Part shown: positions 17,137 through 29,091 of the stretch, piece after piece
Layout of the letters: each line of letters starts with the position of its first letter
Position numbering within the stretch: the first letter of the stretch is position 1
Source of the DNA: Planctomycetota bacterium
GTDB lineage: Bacteria; Planctomycetota; B15-G4; JADJEK01
Length of the DNA: 64,000 nucleotides
NCBI GenBank assembly: GCA_044225365.1
Contig: JBGAIQ010000008.1
Coordinates: forward strand, 1 to 64,000
Reading direction: 5' to 3'
Program-made: the position numbers and the translations under genes
Notes under the pieces: generated by a model
What the model saw: only the letters and a program-made list of their open reading frames with translations
The model's database searches: none
What the model was told of the DNA's origin: nothing

Positions 17137-18083
17137 CCGGTCGCACGCGCTTCGCGGTGGCGCGCCTCGTTCAGGACGTCGCTCAACGTCGTATCGATCG
17201 CGATCTGCGGGGCGTATTCCGTCGCGGCGTGGAATCGTCGCGGGTCGCCGACGAACATCGGCACGTCGATCGCCCGGACGCGCGATGGATCCGTCTCGGA
17301 GTGGATCTTGCACCGCGCGAGTGTGACCATGCGATCGACGAGGGAACCGATCGAGAGCCCCACGCCGCTGCACACGTTGAACGCATGTCCCGGCGGCAGA
17401 TCGCCGCGCGGAGCGACGAGTGCGAGCTCGTAGGCGCGCACCACGTCGCGCACATCGGTGAAGTCGCGGATCGCATCGAGATTGCCGTGCCTCAGCACTC
17501 CGCCGCCTTGGCGCTCGATCCGAGCGATCTGCTCCGCGAACGAAGCGACGACGTAGGCCGAATCCTGACCAGGACCGATGTGGTTGAACGGGCGGAGCAC
17601 GACGACGTCGAGCCCTTCCTCGGCGAACGCGCGGCAAACCAGCTCTGCGGCGGCCTTCGACGCGCCGTAGAGCGTGACCGGCTGCGGCGGCGTGTCCTCC
17701 CCGATCGGGTCCTTCGCGTCGCGCATGCGGCCGTAGACCTCCGCCGTGGACACCATCACGATGCGGGCGTCGAGCGCCGCCTCGCGCGCGGCGGCGAGGA
17801 GCACGAGCGTGCCGGTCGCGTTCGTCTCGAATCCGAAGACGGGGTCGCGTTGGACGGCGGGAACGAACGCGATCGCCGCGAGGTGCAGGATCGCGTCCGG
17901 GCGCTCGGCCTCGAGGATGCGGCGAATGACGTGCGCATCGCGGATGTCCGCGCGCAGCGGTTTCGCCGTCAGGACCGGCGCCCCATCGATCGAGAGCGCG
18001 ACGACGTCGTGCCCACGGTCGAGGAGGTGCTTCGTGGCGTGCTTACCGACGAAGCCCGCGGCGCCCGTGACGAGGATTCGCAC
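17109..18083 (-). CDS. rmd: GDP-4-keto-6-deoxy-D-mannose reductase-like extended SDR
   Basis: LVTGAAGFVG, YGASK, RPFNHIGPGQ, GNLDAIRDFTDVRDVVRAY; adjacent to gmd. Confidence 0.8.
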   Translation of the reverse strand: MRILVTGAAGFVGKHATKHLLDRGHDVVALSIDGAPVLTAKPLRADIRDAHVIRRILEAERPDAILHLAAIAFVPAVQRDPVFGFETNATGTLVLLAAAREAALDARIVMVSTAEVYGRMRDAKDPIGEDTPPQPVTLYGASKAAAELVCRAFAEEGLDVVVLRPFNHIGPGQDSAYVVASFAEQIARIERQGGGVLRHGNLDAIRDFTDVRDVVRAYELALVAPRGDLPPGHAFNVCSGVGLSIGSLVDRMVTLARCKIHSETDPSRVRAIDVPMFVGDPRRFHAATEYAPQIAIDTTLSDVLNEARHREARATGQGEAPPLR

Positions 18084-18090
18084 GCTCGCC

Positions 18091-19080
18091 TCAGCGCGCC
18101 GGCTTCAACGAGAAGCGAGCGAGATCGGCATCGACCATGCAGTCGACGAGATCGTGGAAGCTGAACTCCGGCTTCCAGCCGAGCACGCGCTTGGCCTTGC
18201 TGCTGTCGGCCCACAGCATGTCGACCTCGGCCGGCCGCAGGAACGACGGATCGGTCTCGACGTGCTTCGTCCAGTCGAGCCCCGCGCGCGCGAAGGCGCG
18301 TTCGCAGAACTCACGAACCGTGTGCATCTCGCCCATCCCGATCACGTAGTCGTCGGGAGTCTCCTGCTGCATCATGAGCCACATCGCACGCACGTAGTCG
18401 GCGGCGTGTCCCCAATCGCGCTTCGCATCGAGATTGCCGAGCTTCAGCTTGTCCTGCTGCTTCGCCTTGATGCGCGCGACCGCGTGCGTGATCTTGCGCG
18501 TCACGAACGTCACGCCGCGCCGCGGCGATTCGTGATTGAAGAGGATGCCGCTGCTCGCGTGCATGCCGTACGACTCGCGGTAGTTCACCGTGATGTAGTG
18601 GCCATACACCTTCGCCACGCCGTACGGACTGCGCGGATGGAACGGCGTCTCCTCGGTCTGAGGGCTCTGCCGCACCTTCCCGAACATCTCGCTCGAACTG
18701 GCCTGGTAGAAGCGGATCTTCGGATCGATCATCCGGATCGCTTCGAGCACGCGCGCGACGCCGACGGCCGTGAACTCCGCCGTGAGCACCGGCTGGTCGA
18801 ACGAGGTCGGCACGAACGATTGCGCCGCCAGGTTGTAGACCTCCTCGGGACGCGCGAACTCGACCGCTCGCACGAGAGACGTCTGATCGAGGAGATCCGC
18901 TTCGCGCAGCTCGAGCTTGCCACGCAAGTGCTCGATGCGCTCGAACGTCTCGGTCGACGATCGGCGAACGATCCCGACGACGCGGTAGCCCTTCTCGAGG
19001 AGGAACTCGGCGAGGTAGCTGCCGTCCTGACCCGTGACGCCCGTCACGAGCGCCGTCTTTCGCGATGTGCGATCCGTCAT
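18091..19080 (-). CDS. gmd: GDP-mannose 4,6-dehydratase
   Basis: [57 protein letters not shown]. Confidence 0.97.
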
Positions 19081-19108: not shown

Positions 19109-19918
19109 TCACTTCATCCCTGCATACACGGTGAAGGCCGCAAGCGGAACGAGATACCAGGCAAACGCGTGGACCCGCCCCCGCTTCAGCAGGAGATCGA
19201 GGAGCCAGAGGGCGAAGAGGCCGGTGACGAAGGAGACGACCACGCCGACGATGAGCGGAGTCATGTCCGCACGCGGCAGTTCGAGGATGTCCTTCACCTT
19301 GAAGACGATCGCGCCCGCGATGATCGGGATCGCCATCAGGAAGCTGAATCGTCCGGCCGCTTGCCCGGTGTAGCCGAGCAGCATCCCCGAGCTGATCGTG
19401 GTGCCGGAGCGTGAGATCCCAGGAGCGAGCGCGAACACCTGCGCGCATCCGATCAGGAACGCGCGGCCGTAGGTCATTTCCCCGATCGGCGCGTTCGCCT
19501 TGGCGTAACGCGTGACGAAGAGGCAGATCGCCGTCACCAGGAAGCCGCCTCCCGCCCACAAGAGCGAGTCCGTCATCGCCTCGACCTTCTTCTCGTAGCG
19601 GATGCCGAAGAACCCCGCGGGAATGCAGCACACGATGATCGCGAGGGCGAGTTTCCAATTCGCTCGGCGCTCCTCCCTCTCGACGCCCGGCGCGAAGAGC
19701 CCTCGCAGCAGCGCGACGATGTCCTTCCACAGGTAGAGCACGACGGCGACGAGCGTCCCGAAGTGCAATGCGACCGTCACAGCGAGGTTGTCCTCTCCGT
19801 GCCCTCCGATGCCGAGGAAGTGCTCGGCGACCGCGAGGTGCCCGTCCGACGACACGGGAAGGAACTCCGTCAAACCCTGAACGATTCCAAGCACCACGAA
19901 CTTGAGAACAAGACTCAA
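19109..19918 (-). CDS. uppP: Undecaprenyl-diphosphate phosphatase
   Basis: [35 protein letters not shown]. Confidence 0.95.
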
Positions 19919-20514
19919 CGGAAGCTCCGGTCGAAGAGGCCGAGCAAGCGAACGACGCGTTGCTGAAGATCGAGCAAATCGAGCGGTTTCTTGACGAAAT
20001 CGTCGATGCCCTGCGCGAGCAGCGCTTTGCTCTCGTCCTCGCTGACGAAGCCGGACATGCAGAGGATCCGGGTACGAGAAAGCGCCGCGTTCGACCGTAT
20101 CGTCTTCGCGACGTCGAGTCCCGTGACATCCCCCAAGTTGTAGTCGATGATGAGCACATCCGGGCGAAACGCGACGGTGAGCGCGCCCGCGGCGTAACCG
20201 TTGCCGGCCGTCTCGACCTCGAACAGCGGCAGCGAGCGAAAGAACGCCGCGAGCGTCGCGACGATCCCGGGCTCGTCGTCCACGATCAACAGGCGCTTCT
20301 TGCCCCGCGCTTCCTCGAGCTCGCCGAGCGGGATCCCGTGCATTCGCATGAACGCGATGAGCTCGTCGCGCGGAATGCGCCGATCCCGCGAGCCCGGGAT
20401 CTTGTACCCCTTCAGCTCACCGGTATCGAACCAACGGATCACCGTCCCGATCGTGACGTTGCACAATCGAGCCGCTTCACCCGTGGTGAACACCGCGCGT
20501 TCGTTCGAGCTCAT
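19915..20514 (-). CDS. Excisionase-type HTH (HTH_17) plus response-regulator receiver protein
   Basis: FTTGEAARLC...WFDTGELKGYKIPGSRDRRIP followed by REC domain (IVDDEP, IIDY, KKP); alternative start at 20553. Confidence 0.88.
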   Translation of the reverse strand: MSSNERAVFTTGEAARLCNVTIGTVIRWFDTGELKGYKIPGSRDRRIPRDELIAFMRMHGIPLGELEEARGKKRLLIVDDEPGIVATLAAFFRSLPLFEVETAGNGYAAGALTVAFRPDVLIIDYNLGDVTGLDVAKTIRSNAALSRTRILCMSGFVSEDESKALLAQGIDDFVKKPLDLLDLQQRVVRLLGLFDRSFR

Positions 20515-20613
20515 TCGTCCTGCGAGGCTTGGAGGAGTCGTCGAAGAATCCATGATTCTACTTCGCGACCCCGAACCACGCGCACTCGCCTAACCCCGAC
20601 CTCGCAAAATCGC

Positions 20614-20642
20614 TTGCATGCTCCCAGGCGGTCCCGTAAAAG
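20614..20642 (+). promoter_or_regulatory. Candidate sigma-70 promoter of tRNA-Val
   Basis: TTGCAT-17 nt-TAAAAG ending 18 nt before the tRNA. Confidence 0.55.
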
Positions 20643-20660
20643 AACCCTCCCGCATCTCGT

Positions 20661-20737
20661 GGGCGTTTAGCTCAGTTGGCTAGAGCACCAGCTCGACAAG
20701 CTGGGGGTCGAAGGTTCAAGTCCTTCAACGCCCACCA
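20661..20737 (+). tRNA. tRNA-Val(GAC)
   Basis: GGGCGTT acceptor stem pairing with AACGCCC, D-arm AGCTCAGTTGGCTAGAGC, anticodon arm CCAGC-TCGACAA-GCTGG, T-loop GTTCAAG, CCA end. Confidence 0.97.
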
Positions 20738-22100
20738 CTTCAACCCTCGCGCCGTCTCGCATAGGGCCGCGCGCACCGGCTTTTCCAGAGAGGTTTACGA
20801 GGTTCGCGCGATTCGCGCTCGAGCCGGTTTCCGCGACGACACTTCGCGCCGTCTCGCACCCGTCGGAACCGGCTCGCACCCCCTCGCGCCCTTCGGACTG
20901 TTGTCGCCACTGTTGCTGCACCCCGTCGGTGCCCGTCGCGGTCGCGGCCTCGCTGCTCGCGCGCGGCTTCGCCGTTGGCTTCGTAAGCCATGCGCGCGAG
21001 TCGATCGCGGTCGCAACGGCGGAATCCTCGATCGAGACGTAATGCCGCAGCGTCGTCGTCGAGCTTGCGTGACGTAGCGCCCGCTGCGCGACGGCCGGCG
21101 TCGATCGGGAGCAGAGTTCGGTCGCCGCGGTCATTCGAAGCGCGTGCAGGTCCACCACGCGTCCCTGCGCGTCTTCCTTCGGGATCTTCGCCCGCTGCAG
21201 GTCGCGATTGAAGGTCTTCGCGCCCGGCATCGTGGCGAACACCCGCACCATCGGCAACACGGCGCCCGCTACGAGCGCCCGGAACGCCCGTAGCGCCTCG
21301 ACGGCTTCCGGATGAAGGTGAATCGTCGCTTCCTTCCGGCTCTTCGCTACGGCCGCGCGAACGCGCAACGTCGCGGCATCCAGGTCGACGTCGCCCCAAG
21401 TGAGCGCGCGGAGTTCGCTGCGACGAAGCGCCGTGTGCACCGCCAGCAGGTAGACCACGCCCCGTTGTGACCATCGCGGCGCGCCCTTGTTCTGCCGGGT
21501 CGTTGCGACCGCGAGCAACGCGCGGAGTTCATCCTCGGTGAACGGCCGGCGAACGAGACGGCGGTCGGCCGCTTCGTTCCGCTTCTCGATCCGCGAAACC
21601 GGGTTCTTCTCGAGCCGGTCGCGAGCGATCAGGAACTCCGCGAGGGCGTGGTACGTCTGGCGGTAGCTGTTCTGCGTTCGCGCGGCGTCGCGCGCAGCAA
21701 TGACTCGCTCGACGGCTTCCAGGGTAAACGTGGAGAGCGGCGCGCCCTTCGGGAGCGCGTTGCGGAGAACGCGTAGGTGCAGCCGCTTCAACTCGACGTT
21801 GCGCGGCGCGAGCATCGAACGGCACCACCGGAGGTAGTCGGCGAGATGCCGCACGAGCGGTAGCGTCGCCGCTCTCGTCGCCGATGCGCCGTTCGGGTTC
21901 GTCGCGATCTCGCGGCGGATCGCGCGGACTTCTTTCGTCCACTTGTCGAGTAGGTCGCGCGCGGCTTCCTTGCTCGTCGTCTCCGTCGACCGGAACACGC
22001 GCCGACGCGACTCGTCGAAGTAGACCGCGTGCCACGGTCCGTCAGACTTGCGGCGGATCAGGGAGCCGCGGCCGTTCGCTCGTTGCTTGCGTCGCATCAT
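20667..22100 (-). CDS. int: Tyrosine recombinase/integrase; reading frame runs through the att core and stops inside the tRNA
   Basis: HTALRRSEL (R), KSRK (K), LHALR (HxxR), ALRHASSTTTLRHY (H...Y); ATG at 22100 overlaps the upstream stop (ATGA). Confidence 0.95.
   Translation of the reverse strand: MMRRKQRANGRGSLIRRKSDGPWHAVYFDESRRRVFRSTETTSKEAARDLLDKWTKEVRAIRREIATNPNGASATRAATLPLVRHLADYLRWCRSMLAPRNVELKRLHLRVLRNALPKGAPLSTFTLEAVERVIAARDAARTQNSYRQTYHALAEFLIARDRLEKNPVSRIEKRNEAADRRLVRRPFTEDELRALLAVATTRQNKGAPRWSQRGVVYLLAVHTALRRSELRALTWGDVDLDAATLRVRAAVAKSRKEATIHLHPEAVEALRAFRALVAGAVLPMVRVFATMPGAKTFNRDLQRAKIPKEDAQGRVVDLHALRMTAATELCSRSTPAVAQRALRHASSTTTLRHYVSIEDSAVATAIDSRAWLTKPTAKPRASSEAATATGTDGVQQQWRQQSEGREGVRAGSDGCETARSVVAETGSSANRANLVNLSGKAGARGPMRDGARVEVVGVEGLEPSTPSLSSWCSSQLS
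20690..20744 (+). repeat. att core, left copy (within the intact tRNA)
   Basis: AGCTCGACAAGCTGGGGGTCGAAGGTTCAAGTCCTTCAACGCCCACCACTTCAAC, identical to 26835..26889. Confidence 0.95.
20897..20918 (+). repeat. Putative integrase arm-type site pair, left arm
   Basis: ACTGTTGTCgccaCTGTTGCTG, matching ACTGTTGTCaaagCTGTTGCTG at 26752..26773. Confidence 0.7.
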
Positions 22101-22342
22101 TTCACCGCCCTCCCCTTCGCCGTTGTTCGCTTGACCTTCGTTGCCGCTCGCGTCGCTTTCGACTCGACGACGAGCCGGAGACCGAGCACGGGAGCGAGCG
22201 CGTCCAATGTGCGCGTCGTCACGTCCGCGCCGGCCATGCACTTCGACAGTGTGCCCTCAGTCACGCCTGATAGTTTCGCTAGCTCGTACCGCGAGAGTCC
22301 GCTCGAGTCGATGATGCGCCGGAGTTCCTTCGCGATCGTCAT
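22097..22342 (-). CDS. Xre/Cro-family HTH protein
   Basis: LRRIIDSSGLSRYELAKLSGVTEGTLSKCMAG..VTTRTLDALAPVLGL; translationally coupled to int. Confidence 0.85.
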   Translation of the reverse strand: MTIAKELRRIIDSSGLSRYELAKLSGVTEGTLSKCMAGADVTTRTLDALAPVLGLRLVVESKATRAATKVKRTTAKGRAVK

Positions 22343-22383
22343 GCGCAAAGAGTACCGCGATGCTTGCGAGAAAGAAAGCTCTA

Positions 22384-23466
22384 TCACGTCTTCCGTCCCT
22401 TCTTGCCTTCGACCGCGCGTTCGATCACCTTCATCCGCCGTTGGTATGTCGCATTGACGAAATCCGCCGACGTTCCGGGGGTGCCGAGCATTTCGTCGCA
22501 TCCCTCCAAGTTTGCGAGATCGACATCACGAAGTAGGCCGACGATTCGCTTCGCGCGCACGGCGTCGGCTCTCGCGATCCAATCCAAGCCTTGATCGCGG
22601 TCGAGATCGACAATGCCGAATCCTTCAGGTTCGTCGCGCCATCGGTGGAGTGCGGTCGCCAGGTATGCGGCCGGGTTTTCACCTTTGCGGCTTGAACGCT
22701 CTACCATCGCTGCGAGTTCAAACAAGGCAAGGTCGCCCCATTCGACGAGACCCGCAGCGGCGGCGCGCGCGTGAAGGCGTTCGAGCCCGCCGAAGGTCTC
22801 CAAGTCCGAGGGGTCGACGTGCATCCAACCTCTCGGCGTAGATCCGGGGGACGTCCACGCGCCGGGGTCCCCCGAAGGGGGCGGCGCGTCAGCATCTTCA
22901 TTCGTCGCCGTTCCCATATCAGTCGCCGTACCCATTCCCATATCCGTGCTTCGATCGGCGTCCTGTCCACTTCCCTCGCGGCCATCGGGTAATCGAAGCA
23001 ATTGCTTCGTCTCGTTGGGGTCTCGAGCGTCCTTGAGGGCCCGCCTCTTTGCCCCGGAATTCGTACCGCCGATTCGCCCGATCGCGGATCGAACCGCTGC
23101 TTTCCGCCCTTGCTGACCCCGCGTCTGATTCAGGCGGAGGTAGTCGACGAGTCGCCACCCTTCGCCGTGCCGAACGAGCACTCCTGCATCTTCGAATTTC
23201 TCGATTCCGCCGCGGTCAATGAAGTGCATTGCGGCGTCGTCCTTCGAAAGCAAGCCGTTCGTCGCTTTGTCGTTCGCGAACGCCCACGCGTCTTGCAGTG
23301 CTTCCCGGTCGAGCGGATCCGGTAGTGCGATCTTCAACGCTTCGCGATCTTCACGACTGCGATACCAAGCGAACCACGCGTTCAGACGGTTGAGCGCCTC
23401 TTCGCGTTGGTCGTTGTCGAGATCGGGGTCGCTCTTTGGGTCGTATCGCTGCTTTGGGTCCGTCAT
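22384..23466 (-). CDS. Phage-type replication initiator / replisome organizer-like protein
   Basis: GWRLVDYLRLNQT...RSAIGRIGGTNSGAKRR followed by a low-complexity DMGMGTATDMGTAT linker and C-terminal NPAAYLATAL, the layout typical of phage O/RepA-like initiators; position next to xis. Confidence 0.65.
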   Translation of the reverse strand: MTDPKQRYDPKSDPDLDNDQREEALNRLNAWFAWYRSREDREALKIALPDPLDREALQDAWAFANDKATNGLLSKDDAAMHFIDRGGIEKFEDAGVLVRHGEGWRLVDYLRLNQTRGQQGRKAAVRSAIGRIGGTNSGAKRRALKDARDPNETKQLLRLPDGREGSGQDADRSTDMGMGTATDMGTATNEDADAPPPSGDPGAWTSPGSTPRGWMHVDPSDLETFGGLERLHARAAAAGLVEWGDLALFELAAMVERSSRKGENPAAYLATALHRWRDEPEGFGIVDLDRDQGLDWIARADAVRAKRIVGLLRDVDLANLEGCDEMLGTPGTSADFVNATYQRRMKVIERAVEGKKGRKT

Positions 23467-23702
23467 GGCCCGCCCCTTTTCGCGGCTTCGACGAACACGG
23501 CCAGGTCGGCCAGGTCGTATCGGACCGCGCGTCCAAGCTGCACGCGGGGGAGCTTGCCACTCGCCGTAAGAGCGAAGAGCAACCGCTCGGAGATCGCGAG
23601 CAGCTCGGCGGCTCGCTTCACGCTCACGAGCTGCGGCGTCGCGGGTGGCGTGCTATCGACGGCATCGCTTTGACTCTCGGGGTCAGCTCGATGTTGCGTC
23701 AT
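23463..23702 (-). CDS. Excisionase/AlpA-like HTH_17 protein
   Basis: LVSVKRAAELLAISERLLFALTASGKLPRVQLGRAVRYDLADLAVFVE. Confidence 0.85.
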   Translation of the reverse strand: MTQHRADPESQSDAVDSTPPATPQLVSVKRAAELLAISERLLFALTASGKLPRVQLGRAVRYDLADLAVFVEAAKRGGP

Positions 23703-23971
23703 CGCTCGGCCCCGCTCTCGTCGTCGCGATCGTCGATCGAGTCGTCGCCGCTTTGATCGTCGGTGCCATCATCCGGATCGAGCGGACCGCCGTCGCGTGC
23801 GTTGCCGAACGATTCGGCCTGTACGAACGCGACCGCTATTCCGCGGCGCGCGAGCTCGGCGAGGGCGGTTCTCGCAAGTTTGAAGTCTCGGGTTCGCACG
23901 GCACGTCGAAGTGCGGCGAACCATGCGGCCGGCGCGTCGCCGGAAAAGGCGCTCGTCTTTCGGGGTTTCAT
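23699..23971 (-). CDS. Small hypothetical element protein with acidic tail
   Basis: AWFAALRRAVRTRDFKLARTALAELARRGIAV; ATGA overlap with the xis-like gene. Confidence 0.7.
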   Translation of the reverse strand: MKPRKTSAFSGDAPAAWFAALRRAVRTRDFKLARTALAELARRGIAVAFVQAESFGNARDGGPLDPDDGTDDQSGDDSIDDRDDESGAER

Positions 23972-24021
23972 ACGGGGGATCTCCAATGCCCGAAATTGGG
24001 CTTCGAAGAATCACCCCCGTC

Positions 24022-24093
24022 TGTCGCGTGTCGCCCTCACTAAGTCGCAGCGGCCTAGGGGCGCAATCGTCAATCGGTGTCGCCGGGCGACAC
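24022..24093. promoter_or_regulatory. Operator-like GTGTCGCC repeats and palindrome upstream of the xis-rep operon
   Basis: GTGTCGCC-G-GGCGACAC perfect inverted repeat at 24077..24093; extra GTGTCGCC at 24028..24035 and TGTCGC at 24022..24027. Confidence 0.6.
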
Positions 24094-24104
24094 TCGGTTG
24101 TCAC

Positions 24105-24809
24105 TCACCCGGCTTCCGCTTCGAGCCTGCCCTTCGTCACATACCCTCTCGTTATCGAGCCGCGATCGCCATCCCTCGCGATCTCAAGCGCCAACTTGAA
24201 TCGCGGGTTCTTGTAGAGGGCTTGCCGACTCAGTCCGACAAGCCTCGCGATTCGTTTCACGTTCCTTTCGCCGCTCGCGAGATACCCTAGCGCACGTTCG
24301 AAGGGGGAGAGCTCGGCCGCATCGATGGTCGTTTGACGAGTCGATTTGCTTTTGTCGGTTCGCCCGACGGTCGCCGCATCGATGGATCGGGATGCCTGGA
24401 GTTCGCGAGCCTCCAGGGTCAGCCGTGTCCCCAGTTGGCTCAAAGCGAGCTCTACCGCCAACGCGTTTTCAAGGGATCGATCGCGTTGGAAACGATGCAC
24501 CGGCTTGTCGTCGAGATTTCGACTCGCCAGAGCCAGCGCGATCGATTCGCAATGGTCGAAGCACAGCAATGAGATGAAAGTCTGCATGTCGACACGATCG
24601 ACCGGCGCCTTCTCCCAGTTCCCTTCCTCGAGCTTGAGTTCGGGCTTCATCTCCGATCCATACCAGCCCGCGATTTCGCGAGCGATGCGAGGCGTGACCA
24701 GTACGTCACTCGGCGAGACTCCCGGCCTTCGTGGCGCGTAAAGTCGGCGCACGCACGCTGCAGCCTTCCCGAGCCCTTCTATCGCCGAGACCAATTCGCT
24801 TTTCGTCAT
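24105..24809 (-). CDS. Hypothetical protein with C-terminal helix-turn-helix (putative element regulator)
   Basis: ERALGYLASGERNVKRIARLVGLSRQALYKNPRF is HTH-like. Confidence 0.7.
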   Translation of the reverse strand: MTKSELVSAIEGLGKAAACVRRLYAPRRPGVSPSDVLVTPRIAREIAGWYGSEMKPELKLEEGNWEKAPVDRVDMQTFISLLCFDHCESIALALASRNLDDKPVHRFQRDRSLENALAVELALSQLGTRLTLEARELQASRSIDAATVGRTDKSKSTRQTTIDAAELSPFERALGYLASGERNVKRIARLVGLSRQALYKNPRFKLALEIARDGDRGSITRGYVTKGRLEAEAG

Positions 24810-24985
24810 GCTTCCTCGCAAGTCGAGGACGGCCGCGCCGCGCTCGTGAGGAAGTCTCGAGCACGTGCGCGGCCTTTTCCGGCGTCTGCAGCGCCGGCTC
24901 GACGGTCGGATATCCTAACGAGGTGGGAATGACGTGCATCCGCACGTCTCGCACTCCTGCCGACTCACCGCTCGAAGGAGAGATC

Positions 24986-25435
24986 ATGCACTCGTTCACG
25001 AAGTTCGCGTTGCCGTTCGCCGTTCTCGTCGCCGCGATCGCGTTCGTCGTTGGCTCCGATGCCTCGGCGCGGAAGGGCGCCGGAGGAAGCGGCCAGGTCC
25101 TGTTTCCGCACCCGGAGGACATCGTCGCGATCAACGGGAACATCGACGGCGCCACTGCGGGAACGCCTTACAAGCTCTACACCGTGCCCTCGAATAGATG
25201 GCTCGTTGTCACCCGCGCTCAGTTCCTGCAGGCCAACAGCGATTTGAGCGACCAGAGCTTGCGATCGGTGAAGGGCGGAATCGAGACAACAGTCGCGAAT
25301 GATGCGGCGTTCGGAGCGATCGAGCCCGTCATCGGTTTGCCATTCGAGCCCGGTTCCGACGTCGTGCTTCGATACGGTTCGGGGAGCGCCGGCTCGCTGA
25401 AGTATCACCTTCGCGGCTACCTCGCGAAACCGTAG
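24986..25435 (+). CDS. Small secreted beta-rich cargo protein (paralog 1)
   Basis: GAAGGAG RBS; MHSFTKFALPFAVLVAAIAFVVGSDASA signal peptide; motifs shared with the next gene. Confidence 0.8.
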   Translation: MHSFTKFALPFAVLVAAIAFVVGSDASARKGAGGSGQVLFPHPEDIVAINGNIDGATAGTPYKLYTVPSNRWLVVTRAQFLQANSDLSDQSLRSVKGGIETTVANDAAFGAIEPVIGLPFEPGSDVVLRYGSGSAGSLKYHLRGYLAKP

Positions 25436-25541
25436 CGGGCCACGACTCGGGTTCATCGATTGTCGAGCTCGCCTCCGCGGGTCGGCCCGGTTCGCATCAA
25501 GCGCAACGTCGTGTACGATCGAGCGACAGAAGGAGATCAAC

Positions 25542-26075
25542 ATGACGCGATCGAATTGGACTCGCGCGATCCCATTGCTCGGGATCGCGGTCGCCCTCGC
25601 TCTCTACTTCGGCGCCGACCACGCCAGCGCGCGCGCAACGCCGAAGCCCCCGAAATGGCAGTGGCCGCCGCGGGCTACGGACATCGTGAATCTAAGCGGC
25701 ATCCAGGATCTCACGACGAGCCCGACCCCGCCAATCTTCCAAGTCCCCGCTGGCCGATGGTTCGTCATCACGAGCGCGGTGATTTACCAACACGTCGTGA
25801 CCGGCACGCCGCAGACCTACTACCAAGGCGTGATGGAGCTCGGGAACAATTCGAGCGTGGAGGTCGTCGAGCTGCTGGGCGGCAACGTGCACTCGGTGAT
25901 TCCGAGAGCCTTGCTCGGTGCATCCCCGAACACTCCGTTCTCGCCATTCGATGCCGGCTTCCAGCATGAAGTCGGCTTCGCGTTCCATCCGGGATCGAGC
26001 GTTGCGTTCACGAGTGCGTTCGCTCCGGCATCCGGGTTCCGATACGCGATCAGCGGCTACCTCTCGCCAGAGTGA
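25542..26075 (+). CDS. Small secreted beta-rich cargo protein (paralog 2)
   Basis: GAAGGAG RBS; signal peptide ending in ASA; DIV.L.G, VP.GRW.V.T, G..F.PGS.V, Y...GYL motifs. Confidence 0.8.
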   Translation: MTRSNWTRAIPLLGIAVALALYFGADHASARATPKPPKWQWPPRATDIVNLSGIQDLTTSPTPPIFQVPAGRWFVITSAVIYQHVVTGTPQTYYQGVMELGNNSSVEVVELLGGNVHSVIPRALLGASPNTPFSPFDAGFQHEVGFAFHPGSSVAFTSAFAPASGFRYAISGYLSPE

Positions 26076-26751
26076 GGGCGTTCGGGGGTCCGTGGGGTCG
26101 ATCCGACTCACGATGCAGCGTTACGTCCGCGAGGCGGTTTCTCGAGCCTGCTGCGGTTCGCTTGAGGGGTCGCCACGTCGCGCGAATCGTCTCGAGGGAG
26201 TTCGGAGCGATTCCGGGTGCAGCGTCCAGGATCGGCATCACGTCGTCGGCGCCCCACTAAGACGCTTTGGGAAGCCTGCACGCTTCGCTGGACATCATCG
26301 AAGCCCCTCGGCCGATTCGCAGTGCAGCGTGACAACATGCGGCGCCCGAGGCTCTCTGCGCCGAAGTCGATTCTGCGTGCGAGAACGCCAACCGAAAGCC
26401 GAAAAGTGCGTCCAGCGCGCGCGCACGCGATCTCGGCCCATTCACCGTGCGGCGTACCCCCCCCCGAACGGTCTGCCGGCGTCGGCGACCGCTACCCGAT
26501 TTCCGCCCCTCCGAAATGCGCCCCGCGCGTCGATTCGACTGGCAAAGACCCGCTCGGAGTCGCGCGATCTCGCGTTGGACTCCCGCCGCAGCATACGCGG
26601 CCTAGCGTCGCGGTTGCGCAGCGTCGGCCGGGCGGGCGTCCGCGAGCGCCTCGAGATGCTCGACGGCTTCGGTGAGGTCGCGCGGCGCGAGTTTCGCGGC
26701 GGCGTTCGCGAGTCGCGCGAGCAGCGACGATCGGCTCGATTCGCCCGCGCT

Positions 26752-26773
26752 ACTGTTGTCAAAGCTGTTGCTG
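26752..26773 (+). repeat. Putative integrase arm-type site pair, right arm
   Basis: ACTGTTGTCaaagCTGTTGCTG, same orientation as the left-arm copy. Confidence 0.7.
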
Positions 26774-26834
26774 GCGCCTCTCTCCGTTGCGCTCGGGTCG
26801 TTTGCCCGCCCGGGTTTACGGTCGGACGCCCCCA

Positions 26835-26889
26835 AGCTCGACAAGCTGGGGGTCGAAGGTTCAAGTCCTTCAACGCCCACCACTTCAAC
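26835..26889 (+). repeat. att core, right copy (3' fragment of tRNA-Val)
   Basis: 55/55 identity with 20690..20744; lacks the 5' half of the tRNA. Confidence 0.95.
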
Positions 26890-27087
26890 TCTCGCGGCGA
26901 GTCTCAAGGGACCGCAGCCACCCAAAATCTCCTTCAATCCGAACGCGAGTTTCGAACGACTCGTGCTGCAACCCGCCCACAAGCGCTTTGCGGTGCGTTC
27001 GCGAGGCGTCGAAAATACTCCTTTGCGCAGAATTGGCGACGGCGGCTTTCCGACATGGGAGGCGGGAGTTTCCCGTCGGAGCCAAGA

Positions 27088-29091
27088 ATGTACCCTCGTC
27101 GTTTCAGCGCCTTCCTGCTCGTGATCGCGGGAAGCGGCGCGCTCGAAGCGCAAAGCGAGATTCGAGAATTCCTCGGCGATCACGCGGGGGACGCGATGGG
27201 GTCGTCCGTGGCTCGCGCCGGCGACGTGAACGGGGACGGCGTCGCGGACGCGATCGTTGGCGCGGTCTGCGGACTCGCTGCGAGCGACAACACGCCTGGA
27301 TATGCGCGGGTCTACTCGGGAATCGACGGAACTGCGCTGTGGACGGTTCACTCCCAATTCAGTGGCGACGGTTTCGGTATCGCGGTCGCGGGCGGGGCGG
27401 ATTTCGATGGTGACGGCGTCCCGGACTTCCTCGTGGGCGCGCCGGGGAACTTCTGGTCCGTCTTCGTCGATTTGAAGGACAAGGATCCCGGCCACGTTCG
27501 CGTGTACTCCGGAGCGAACGGAACGTTGTTGCTCAACGTGAAGGGCATTCCGGTGATCGGAGGCTTCGGCTCTTCGCTGGCGATCACCGGCGACATGGAT
27601 CTCGACGGCGTCGTCGATTTCGTGGCGGGCGCACCCGGATGGTCCGTCGATTCCGAGGGCGCATGCCACGTCGTGTCCGGAGCGAATGGCTCCAGGATCC
27701 ATGATGCATTCGGAACGTCGGCGCAGGGCTGGTTGGGATCGATCCCCATCGTCGTCGGCGATCACTTCGGAGCCACTGTCGCCGGTCCCGGAGATCTCGA
27801 CGACGACGGCGTACCGGACTTCGTCGCCGGCACGCGGGCGGACGGGTTCTCCGGCAAGAGCGGTAACAAGGCCAGAGCATTCTCGGGCGCGACCGGGAAC
27901 ATGCTCTACGAGCTGAAGGGAGAAAAGCCGTCGGATGAACTCGGCGTGGTGATCGCCTCCGCCGGCGACATGAACGCCGACGGCGCGCCCGAAGTCGCGG
28001 TCAGCGCGCTCTCCGACTCCCTTCAGAAGAACGTGAAGTGCGGCAGCGTTCGCATCGTTTCGGGGAAATCCGCGGAACTGCTCCTGTTCCTGTCCGGGGA
28101 GCTCGACCACCGGCGATTCGGAAGCTCGCTCGCCGGGCTCGGCGACGTGAACGACGACGGCCGCGACGACCTCGCGGTCGCGGTTCGAGGCAGTGCGTCC
28201 GAGACCAGCGGGGTACGCATCCATGGCGGCAGCGACGGCAACCTGCTGGCGTCGTGGCACTACGCGGAGCCGGAAGGCGGCTATCCGCTCCAACTGGCCG
28301 CAGCCGGCGACGTCGATCAGGATGGCACGCGCGATCTCTTGGTCGGCGCGGCGACTCACGCAGACTCAGGCCATGCGCACCTCGTTTCCATCGGCTCCAC
28401 ACTGCAGCTTCCGCCCGAGTCGCAGAGCTTCTTCCCCGGTGACGTGCTCGACGGGTCGATCGAAATGAACGGCGACGCCGATTCTTGTCACTTCCTCGCC
28501 GTCGCCGGTTCGACTCTGGAAGTGAACATCACCGTGCTCTCCGGCTCGCTCGTACCGGTCGTCTCCCTCCATACCGTGAACGACCTCACGGTGGGGCCGG
28601 CGATCGCGACCACGACGTTGACCGTGCCCTCGGGTTCGGTCACGATCGAGATCGACGAGCTCGCGCAATACGCACTGCAGATCGAGGGCGAGAACGGCAC
28701 GACTGGAGACTATCGGGTGAAGACGTCGATCGAACTCCCGCCGCTCGCCGCGAGCCGAAGCGTTTCGAGTACCGCTAAGAAGAAGAAGCAGGGGAAGTAC
28801 TTCGCCGAGGCCCCGTTCACGGCGCTCGCCGGCAGTCGTCTGGACGTGGTCCTCACCGCCCCGCAGGGAGTGCTTCCATCCGCCGCGCTCGTCGATCCAT
28901 CGGGACACGAGGTGAAGAAATCTCAATACAGCGTGACGGTCGTTGGCCACCAGTTGAAGATCAAGAAGGCTCCGATCATGACGAGTGGCGATTACAAGCT
29001 TCGTGCGTTCGGCGGCGAGAAGGGCGACTCGTTCGAGTTCGAGATCTCGCCCTTGCCGCCAGGCACCGGGCTGACACTGAACGTGGATTGA
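27088..29091 (+). CDS. Secreted FG-GAP (integrin-alpha-like beta-propeller) protein with C-terminal beta-sandwich domains
   Basis: Signal peptide; about 7 repeats of FG.S...GD.NGDG..D..VGAP; C-terminal PPC-like DADSCHFLAVAGSTLEV. Confidence 0.9.
   Translation: MYPRRFSAFLLVIAGSGALEAQSEIREFLGDHAGDAMGSSVARAGDVNGDGVADAIVGAVCGLAASDNTPGYARVYSGIDGTALWTVHSQFSGDGFGIAVAGGADFDGDGVPDFLVGAPGNFWSVFVDLKDKDPGHVRVYSGANGTLLLNVKGIPVIGGFGSSLAITGDMDLDGVVDFVAGAPGWSVDSEGACHVVSGANGSRIHDAFGTSAQGWLGSIPIVVGDHFGATVAGPGDLDDDGVPDFVAGTRADGFSGKSGNKARAFSGATGNMLYELKGEKPSDELGVVIASAGDMNADGAPEVAVSALSDSLQKNVKCGSVRIVSGKSAELLLFLSGELDHRRFGSSLAGLGDVNDDGRDDLAVAVRGSASETSGVRIHGGSDGNLLASWHYAEPEGGYPLQLAAAGDVDQDGTRDLLVGAATHADSGHAHLVSIGSTLQLPPESQSFFPGDVLDGSIEMNGDADSCHFLAVAGSTLEVNITVLSGSLVPVVSLHTVNDLTVGPAIATTTLTVPSGSVTIEIDELAQYALQIEGENGTTGDYRVKTSIELPPLAASRSVSSTAKKKKQGKYFAEAPFTALAGSRLDVVLTAPQGVLPSAALVDPSGHEVKKSQYSVTVVGHQLKIKKAPIMTSGDYKLRAFGGEKGDSFEFEISPLPPGTGLTLNVD

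Follow-up and report, generated by a model that had tools for sequence, protein, structure and literature searches.

An attachment site within the integrase gene of a small Planctomycetota integrative element and a candidate rejoinable C-terminal tail

The DNA analysed here (referred to as the window) is the 64,000-nucleotide stretch at positions 1 to 64,000 of contig JBGAIQ010000008.1 (assembly GCA_044225365.1) from a Planctomycetota bacterium. It carries a 6.1-kb integrative element (20690-26889) in the 3′ half of the gene for tRNA-Val(GAC). The attachment (att) core of this element is read in the frame of the integrase gene (int), ~100 codons past the catalytic tyrosine. Since the attachment site of the element (attP) thus lies within int and downstream of the catalytic domain, integration exchanges the C-terminus of the integrase (Int), and any recombination at the core must replace the 3′ end of the gene. 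A probability of roughly 0.7 is assigned to the reading that this is an attP-within-int architecture, placed after the catalytic domain, with a long (547-aa) and a short (477-aa) form of the enzyme and a tail that can be rejoined. The initial annotation of the window had proposed an att site inside int and a swap of the C-terminus upon integration; this proposal was borne out, and all of its coordinates, peptides and protein lengths were correct. The features on which the argument is based are listed below.

20661-20737, plus strand: tRNA-Val (anticodon GAC), located with ARAGORN as the sole tRNA in the window; intact after integration, with its 3′ 48 nt within the att core
20690-20744: left att core (attL), 55-bp exact copy adjoining int
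26835-26889: right att core (attR), 55-bp exact copy at the distal end of the element
20667-22100, minus strand: int, integrated form, 477 aa plus stop (from the open reading frame, Pfam and the start of a database homologue)
20745-21029, minus strand: post-catalytic linker of Int, poorly conserved in alignments except for an ATGT motif
20747-20761, plus strand: 15-bp exact direct repeat, copy 1, adjoining the core (starting 3 bp past it); candidate arm-type site
20844-20858, plus strand: 15-bp exact direct repeat, copy 2, 97 bp from copy 1; candidate arm-type site
26602-26834, minus strand: tail detached from int, 77 codons and a stop, in phase with Int as read from the core
26638-26748, minus strand: helix-break-helix predicted for the tail (48-66 and 69-84 in the residue numbering of the 95-aa stretch 26605-26889)

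The minus-strand open reading frame (ORF) of int ends at a stop at 20667 and can start at GTG 22241 (524 aa) or at ATG 22100 (477 aa). The 477-aa ATG form is identical to the database protein P0001, and the closest homologue, P0002, starts at the same place. The domain order is an N-terminal arm-type region, a core-binding domain, the catalytic domain, a low-complexity linker, 18 att-encoded residues and seven tRNA-antisense residues. The Pfam family Phage_integrase (PF00589) was matched at 64.1 bits (cut-off 27.1) over residues 234-404 of the 524-aa form. The catalytic R, K, HxxR, H and Y were invariant in 28/28 aligned family rows, P0001 included (R216, K241, H305, R308, H331 and Y341 in the numbering of L142, a relative described below), and the integrated gene keeps the whole PF00589 domain together with all catalytic residues.

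The core is an exact direct repeat of 55 bp; to the right of the two copies a weaker similarity continues (88% over 88 nt). Across the left copy int reads ...VEVVGVEGLEPSTPSLSS, then WCSSQLS, and stops at 20667-20669, the last seven residues being antisense to the 5′ portion of the tRNA, which comes from the host. Read in this phase, the right copy gives an identical run of 18 residues, followed by 77 codons (LGASDRKPG...QPRR) and a stop at 26602-26604. When the two ends are joined in silico, the fused Int predicted after excision has 477 - 25 + 95 = 547 aa. Integration thus swaps 77 codons for seven and leaves tRNA-Val intact. The identity of the 55-bp copies and the presence of all catalytic residues of Int suggest that the element was recently active.

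Integrase genes and detached tails in related elements

As an open frame of the length of the tail occurs at chance level in this genome, the question of the tail was decided by comparison with related elements. By its sequence, the integrase of the window belongs to a clade that is common in Planctomycetota. Only five database homologues fell in the length range, and all five end in peptides antisense to the T-arm and acceptor of a tRNA; P0002 (64% identity) shares the ...GLEPSTPSLSSWCSSQLS end of the window protein. The 3′ end of int is complete at 65 non-redundant loci from Planctomycetota, of which 41 (the window and 40 further loci) overlap a tRNA gene, three stop before it and 21 have none nearby, so that the situation weighed in the initial annotation as contrary to its proposal, namely homologous integrases that stop before the att core, is not the one found. 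A further 124 loci, from other phyla and from metagenome contigs outside the Planctomycetota set, comprised five with a tRNA overlap, 31 in which int stops 14-199 nt before the tRNA gene, 85 with no tRNA gene and three that run off the contig. The overlap is therefore a trait of the clade and not of the wider family (41/65 versus 5/124 loci). At least 16 tRNA species are used as targets within the Planctomycetota clade.

A second att copy was sought in up to 20 kb beside 34 relatives. An exact repeat of at least 24 bp was found near the int end at 18 loci, and the Int frame was open for 56-85 codons past the distal copy in 16 of these. Frame continuity was additionally seen for L031, for L072 and for the element of genome G009, the Int of which has 49% identity to that of the window and uses the same tRNA-Val, with its attR core on another contig. 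At a few relatives (L030, L046, L015 and L143) the tRNA at the int end lies on the same strand as int; the repeat of L030 covers the 5′ part of the tRNA, and its att-encoded peptide is a sense and not an antisense translation.

The tails of the relatives consist of a low-complexity, unconserved start and a conserved end of ~30 residues. The consensus of the main group is approximately DPELAAVVAAWPxLPxAIRAGIVAMV and that of a second group (L023, L027, L031 and G009) is L..L..L(D/P)..ER..V..H. The groups are linked by pairwise comparison (L031 with L023 and G009 with L031, 0/2000 shuffles; L023 with L025, p = 0.001). Because circularity was to be avoided, an independent profile was built from 24 database orphan proteins only, and all three phases beyond each distal core were scanned with it. 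Of 21 elements, 11 had the motif with a score of at least 30 bits, in all 11 in the Int phase and without a stop between core and motif; L023 reached 14 bits and the other nine, the window included, gave nothing or less than 2 bits. The 11 elements are not independent trials, because they are kin; they use different tRNA cores, so that each switch of target must have either preserved the phase or restored it.

A profile of 18 tails was run against 1.84 billion representative proteins and gave 8,985 matches at E ≤ 1e-3, of which 243 reached E ≤ 1e-10. The 150 top matches were all of 42-234 aa with the motif at the C-terminal end. At least 11 of 37 inspected proteins had a tRNA-antisense-like peptide ahead of the motif, and two proteins were identical to tails derived from loci (P0012 to that of L026 and P0029 to that of L030). 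These short proteins are probably what a gene caller produces from the detached tail at attR, and hence halves of integrase genes. Two of them (P0008 and P0009) contain the motif twice in one ORF, perhaps because elements lie in tandem or nested at a single site.

Searches of the tail-bearing proteins against Pfam and NCBIfam returned no family for the motif. Foldseek gave no match of the module to the PDB at E ≤ 0.001, the tail profile matched none of the PDB sequences at E ≤ 10, and the matches in a protein atlas were unnamed clusters only, commonest in Planctomycetota. The tail of L142 was predicted with AlphaFold2 (34-row alignment) as a two-helix hairpin, with helices at positions 16-24 and 30-45 of the last 60 residues and a predicted local distance difference test score (pLDDT) of ~90. 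Prediction of a complex between the Int core (L142 residues 1-385, 28 rows) and the tail (34 rows) gave a score of 0.00 against a mark of 0.32, a result that speaks neither for nor against binding. The L-P-x-x-x-R-x-x-hydrophobic pattern of the tail presumably resembles the start of sigma region 4 and of LuxR-type helix-turn-helix (HTH) domains, which is a lead only. A profile of type-B tails matched a sigma-factor-like stretch on contig C57 of genome G000 (17573-18343, minus strand; ALKALPPRERAAFLLHV...) at 16.2 bits (E = 0.038), likewise a weak lead only.

The fused protein, which the initial annotation had suggested looking for in related genomes, has natural counterparts in L141, L142 and P0024. 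L141 is a metagenome contig without a complete tRNA gene; it has a 141-bp terminal overlap and therefore closes to a circle of 7,364 bp. The ORF of its Int includes a tRNA-Gly-like core peptide, crosses the circle junction and ends with the motif. Its close relative L140 is the integrated form, with a stop right after the core and tRNA-Gly present. L142 (1,940 bp, no tRNA) encodes a 523-aa Int (ATG at 149, stop at 1720) in which the core peptide, the linker and the motif are all present, and this protein is on record as P0158 with PF00589. In the partial protein P0024 the motif is joined to the last part of the catalytic domain (PF00589, 27.7 bits). That the split tail is a real phenomenon across the family is given a probability well above nine in ten.

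The tail of the window and rival explanations

Single-sequence AlphaFold2 prediction of the window tail gave ~45 disordered residues followed by a helix (residues 48-66), an Ala-Pro break and a second helix (residues 69-84), with pLDDT values of 75-80. The last 45 codons have a coding-like G+C content at the three codon positions (GC1/2/3 = 0.84/0.60/0.82), and the first 31 codons are without pattern (0.58/0.68/0.74), the periodicity being restricted to the helical part. The conserved C-terminal motif of the split-tail clade was not found in the window tail, which shares only the helix-break-helix layout. As far as comparison of sequences goes, the window tail is an outlier within its family.

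Several results weigh against the rejoinable-tail reading. When random points and frames were drawn from this genome (65% G+C), 46% were open for at least 77 codons, for which reason the open frame alone is worthless as evidence, and at attR a phase other than that of Int runs open for 148 codons. The GC periodicity of the tail is equally compatible with an antisense frame of a long plus-strand ORF (25918-29091). Against two family profiles the tail scored 1.0 and -0.6 bits (top shuffles, 8-13 bits), the independent orphan-protein profile gave no match in it, and its best pairwise p value against eight family tails was 0.095 (control pairs, 0/2000). None of 94 candidates among database proteins of 52-167 aa scored with the 95-aa tail, and the tail ORF was not among the matches listed in a genome-wide six-frame search with the family profiles. 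The initial annotation had made conservation of the tail a point to be checked: a conserved, in-frame tail is present in relatives, but the window's own 77-aa tail is without detectable similarity, and the database search proposed for it returned no homologue at near length. Among the relatives, L054 and L055 have a stop inside the repeat (these repeats are probably not att sites), L056, which is one of the 16 loci with an open frame, has a 24-bp repeat 1.7 kb away without the motif, and L036 is ambiguous. Fused forms are rare: a word-based search with the L142 tail in proteins of 287-916 aa recovered only L142's own protein among 170 candidates. Finally, no contig bridging attP or an empty host site (attB) was among the matches listed for the window's element in four sequencing runs, which is uninformative either way because contigs drop rare variants.

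Much of this would be expected if the 77 codons were a chance or decayed frame, Int were the same with either end, and the overlap were a dispensable disordered C-terminus running over att. The frequency of open frames, the long open frame in another attR phase, the lack of significant similarity to any family tail and the lack of a near-length database homologue all agree with that explanation. We nevertheless judge it unlikely, since the window tail has the layout of its relatives (a low-complexity linker and then helix-break-helix within the last 50 residues), its coding-like periodicity is confined to the last 45 codons, the perfect att repeats and intact catalytic residues suggest a recently active element, and the tail is clearly selected in relatives. 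The motif might instead be a separate small gene with its own start at the far end of the element, with incidental continuity of frame across attP. Such a gene would account for the shortness of the best 150 profile matches, all called as genes of their own, and for the lack of a Pfam or NCBIfam family linking the motif to integrases. It would leave unaccounted for the Int frame without a stop after the core in 11/11 elements despite their different tRNA cores, the many short proteins that start with tRNA-antisense peptides as a gene caller would yield at attR, and the uninterrupted fused ORFs of L141, L142 and P0024, and we regard it as very unlikely. It is more improbable still that the paired repeats and the overlap arose in assembly or belong to a dead element, with two forms that have no biological consequence. 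The genome is indeed a metagenome-assembled draft of 103 contigs, the public contigs of the four runs over 19400-28200 break at both cores, and an int-linker-like remnant lies just outside attR; the same arrangement, however, is found in relatives, both in assemblies made independently and within single long contigs, and in the window the two 55-bp copies match exactly and int is intact. We therefore retain the attP-within-int reading with a rejoinable tail. We put at about two in three the chance that the window tail is translated and functions as part of Int in the excised form.

Proposed mechanism and comparison with known systems

In the excised circle, the long form would consist of the catalytic core, a disordered linker, ~18 att-core residues (tRNA antisense), a second linker and the C-terminal helix-break-helix. 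Integration cuts int at the core; the short gene then ends seven codons into the host tRNA antisense with its catalytic residues kept, and the tail is stranded at the other end of the element, 6.1 kb away. Excision would rejoin it to int. By analogy with IntP and IntX of Myxococcus phage Mx8, the long form may be the integration-proficient enzyme, and the short form may have an altered activity or directionality and act with the excisionase-like HTH protein of the element. A functional switch by the tail swap, which the initial annotation had suggested for activity, stability or directionality, is plausible on this analogy.

The linker-coding DNA on both sides of the core would double as attP arms, and the linkers may be unconstrained as protein because their DNA serves in this way. 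We infer that the linker at 20745-21029 is one such arm. Its DNA at 20745-20999 has GC1/2/3 values of 0.68/0.67/0.76, and on the tail side short repeats are present at 26686-26720. A degenerate third copy of the 15-bp repeat lies at 20869-20881. With up to three mismatches the repeat gave 17 matches in the window versus a shuffle mean of 20.9, and only two matches were exact.

A wider picture is offered tentatively, at somewhat short of even odds. It would comprise a large Planctomycetota clade of tRNA-targeting integrases that are cut and rejoined by their own reaction. Their disordered linkers would also be attP arms and would flank a peptide encoded by att, and a conserved two-helix module (no Pfam family) would be attached only in the excised state. 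Detached tails would then account for thousands of small 'hypothetical proteins' next to tRNA genes, and the module would set directionality, the long form integrating and the short form only excising with the HTH factor.

Mx8 is the closest system in logic and bacterial context, and is not a sequence relative. Like the integrase of the window, that of Mx8 is a tyrosine integrase with attP in the 3′ part of its gene (intP, converted to intX/intR on integration), and a tRNA-like ...STGLEPV... stretch is followed in Mx8 Int by ~110 residues. The target of Mx8 is reportedly a tRNA-Asp gene, with 112 residues said to be replaced by 13. BLASTP comparison of the two integrases gave a best E of 1, a further result on the negative side, and the analogy is therefore architectural only. 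Mx8 was also not among the 30 matches listed, of 187 records, in a search of a phage collection with the window Int, and its tail has no detectable sequence similarity to the tails described here. Mx8 is a 49.5-kb tailed phage, whereas the elements here measure 4.9-16.4 kb among the relatives and no virion genes were recognised in the window's copy with Pfam and PHROG. A further difference from Mx8 is that a whole clade has the design, with 16 or more tRNA species as targets and a two-helix module conserved at the end. A passage of a review (PMC6070905) describes attP within int of Mx8, a new 3′ end made by integration and an integrase that is not inactivated but changed in specificity. The initial annotation had named Mx8 and SSV1 as precedents. 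Mx8 is apt, as attP lies within int and the C-terminus is exchanged; SSV1 is the weaker parallel, because SSV-type integration breaks the enzyme and here every catalytic residue stays.

The SSV-type comparison set comprised type I, 'suicidal' archaeal integrases, e.g. SSV1, pTN3 and pT26-2. As far as the consulted parts of two articles describe them (PMC7253208 and PMC5861418), attP lies in the int coding sequence, att is translated, and the halves at both ends of the element evolve semi-independently and reshuffle. With the present system they share an att site inside int, a peptide translated from it, a gene left in two pieces, one at each end of the element, and the reshuffling of these pieces. 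Integration of the SSV type leaves two inactive pseudogenes, whereas the cut here falls after the catalytic tyrosine and the domain is complete. A passage of PMC7253208 calls type I (attP within int) 'so far restricted to archaea'; the SSV type is archaeal and the integrase family described here is bacterial.

For the mycobacteriophages BPs and Brujita (clusters G, N and P), the consulted parts of PMC9262239 describe an attP in a coding sequence by a tRNA, where integration removes a C-terminal segment and acts as a switch. In this integration-dependent immunity a repressor is cut and an ssrA-like degradation tag is removed, whereas here int is cut and the segment is a helical module of ~30 residues with variable last residues. 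The att of the window crosses int, the XRE-type regulator (22097-22501) lies away from the cores, and the window tail ends in ...QPRR, which is not -LAA-like. A lambda-like arrangement, with attP downstream of int, is seen in distant homologues from Actinomycetota, Chloroflexota and other phyla, which likewise converge on a tRNA gene; their int stops 14-199 nt before the tRNA (31 loci), and integration therefore leaves the protein unaltered.

No paper describing the arrangement in Planctomycetota was found in the literature searched, supplements aside. To our knowledge, an integrase C-terminus rewritten by the enzyme's own reaction rested in bacteria mainly on one phage, Mx8, and we know of few genetic tools and almost no described mobile elements for Planctomycetota. 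The split-int design now appears as a rule for a whole clade of small Planctomycetota integrative elements, and because the detachable module is conserved it is open to mutation and assay. For annotation, the 'integrases' called beside tRNA genes in these genomes would be the prophage isoforms. Small int-attP cassettes such as that of L141 (7.4-kb circle) could become integration vectors for Planctomycetota.

Other genes and flanks of the element

The remaining genes of the element and a remnant outside attR are listed below.

22097-22501, minus strand: XRE-type HTH regulator (Pfam HTH_31/HTH_26/HTH_3; PHROG repressor families)
22384-23466, minus strand: 360-aa ORF without a Pfam or PHROG match (ORF call)
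23463-23702, minus strand: HTH_17 or excisionase-like ORF, 79 aa, candidate directionality factor (PF12728, 29.9 bits; phrog_66, E = 2.6e-5)
24105-24821, minus strand: 238-aa ORF with a weak HTH_28 match (19.5 bits, under the Pfam cut-off)
24986-25435 and 25542-26075, plus strand: two paralogous ORFs with hydrophobic N-termini (BLASTP E = 5e-11, 27% identity)
26890-26976, minus strand: int-linker-like host flank outside attR, resembling Int residues ~414-474 (tblastn E = 5.6e-8, 60% identity)

The start of the XRE-type regulator is uncertain because its ORF overlaps the next one. The phrog_66 family matched by the 79-aa ORF is labelled 'excisionase and transcriptional regulator', and two small ORFs follow the HTH_17 ORF in the gene content of the element. 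The two paralogous ORFs, which had no Pfam or PHROG match, are the only plus-strand genes of the element and are probably secreted or membrane cargo.

As the flank at 26890-26976 resembles the Int linker, the int-like remnant, the core and the present tail together form one open minus-strand frame. The remnant may have been left by a related element that occupied this tRNA-Val earlier, or by a tandem insertion followed by loss. Run X3, an activated-sludge metagenome from a second study, contained contigs of a related element (~1.5-3.5% different) at 23422-25711 and 26660-26771; a 544-base contig of this run covers 112 bases of the helical part of the tail with one difference and diverges on both sides.

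The left host flank encodes the undecaprenyl-diphosphatase BacA and a response regulator with HTH_17 and receiver domains, and the right flank an FG-GAP repeat protein. In the response regulator (19918-20553, minus strand, left of the tRNA) the N-terminal DNA-binding part is an excisionase-type HTH_17 domain, a domain type that it has in common with the putative excisionase of the element. The FG-GAP repeat protein (27100-29088, plus strand) contains internal DNA repeats with a period of ~177-200 bp.

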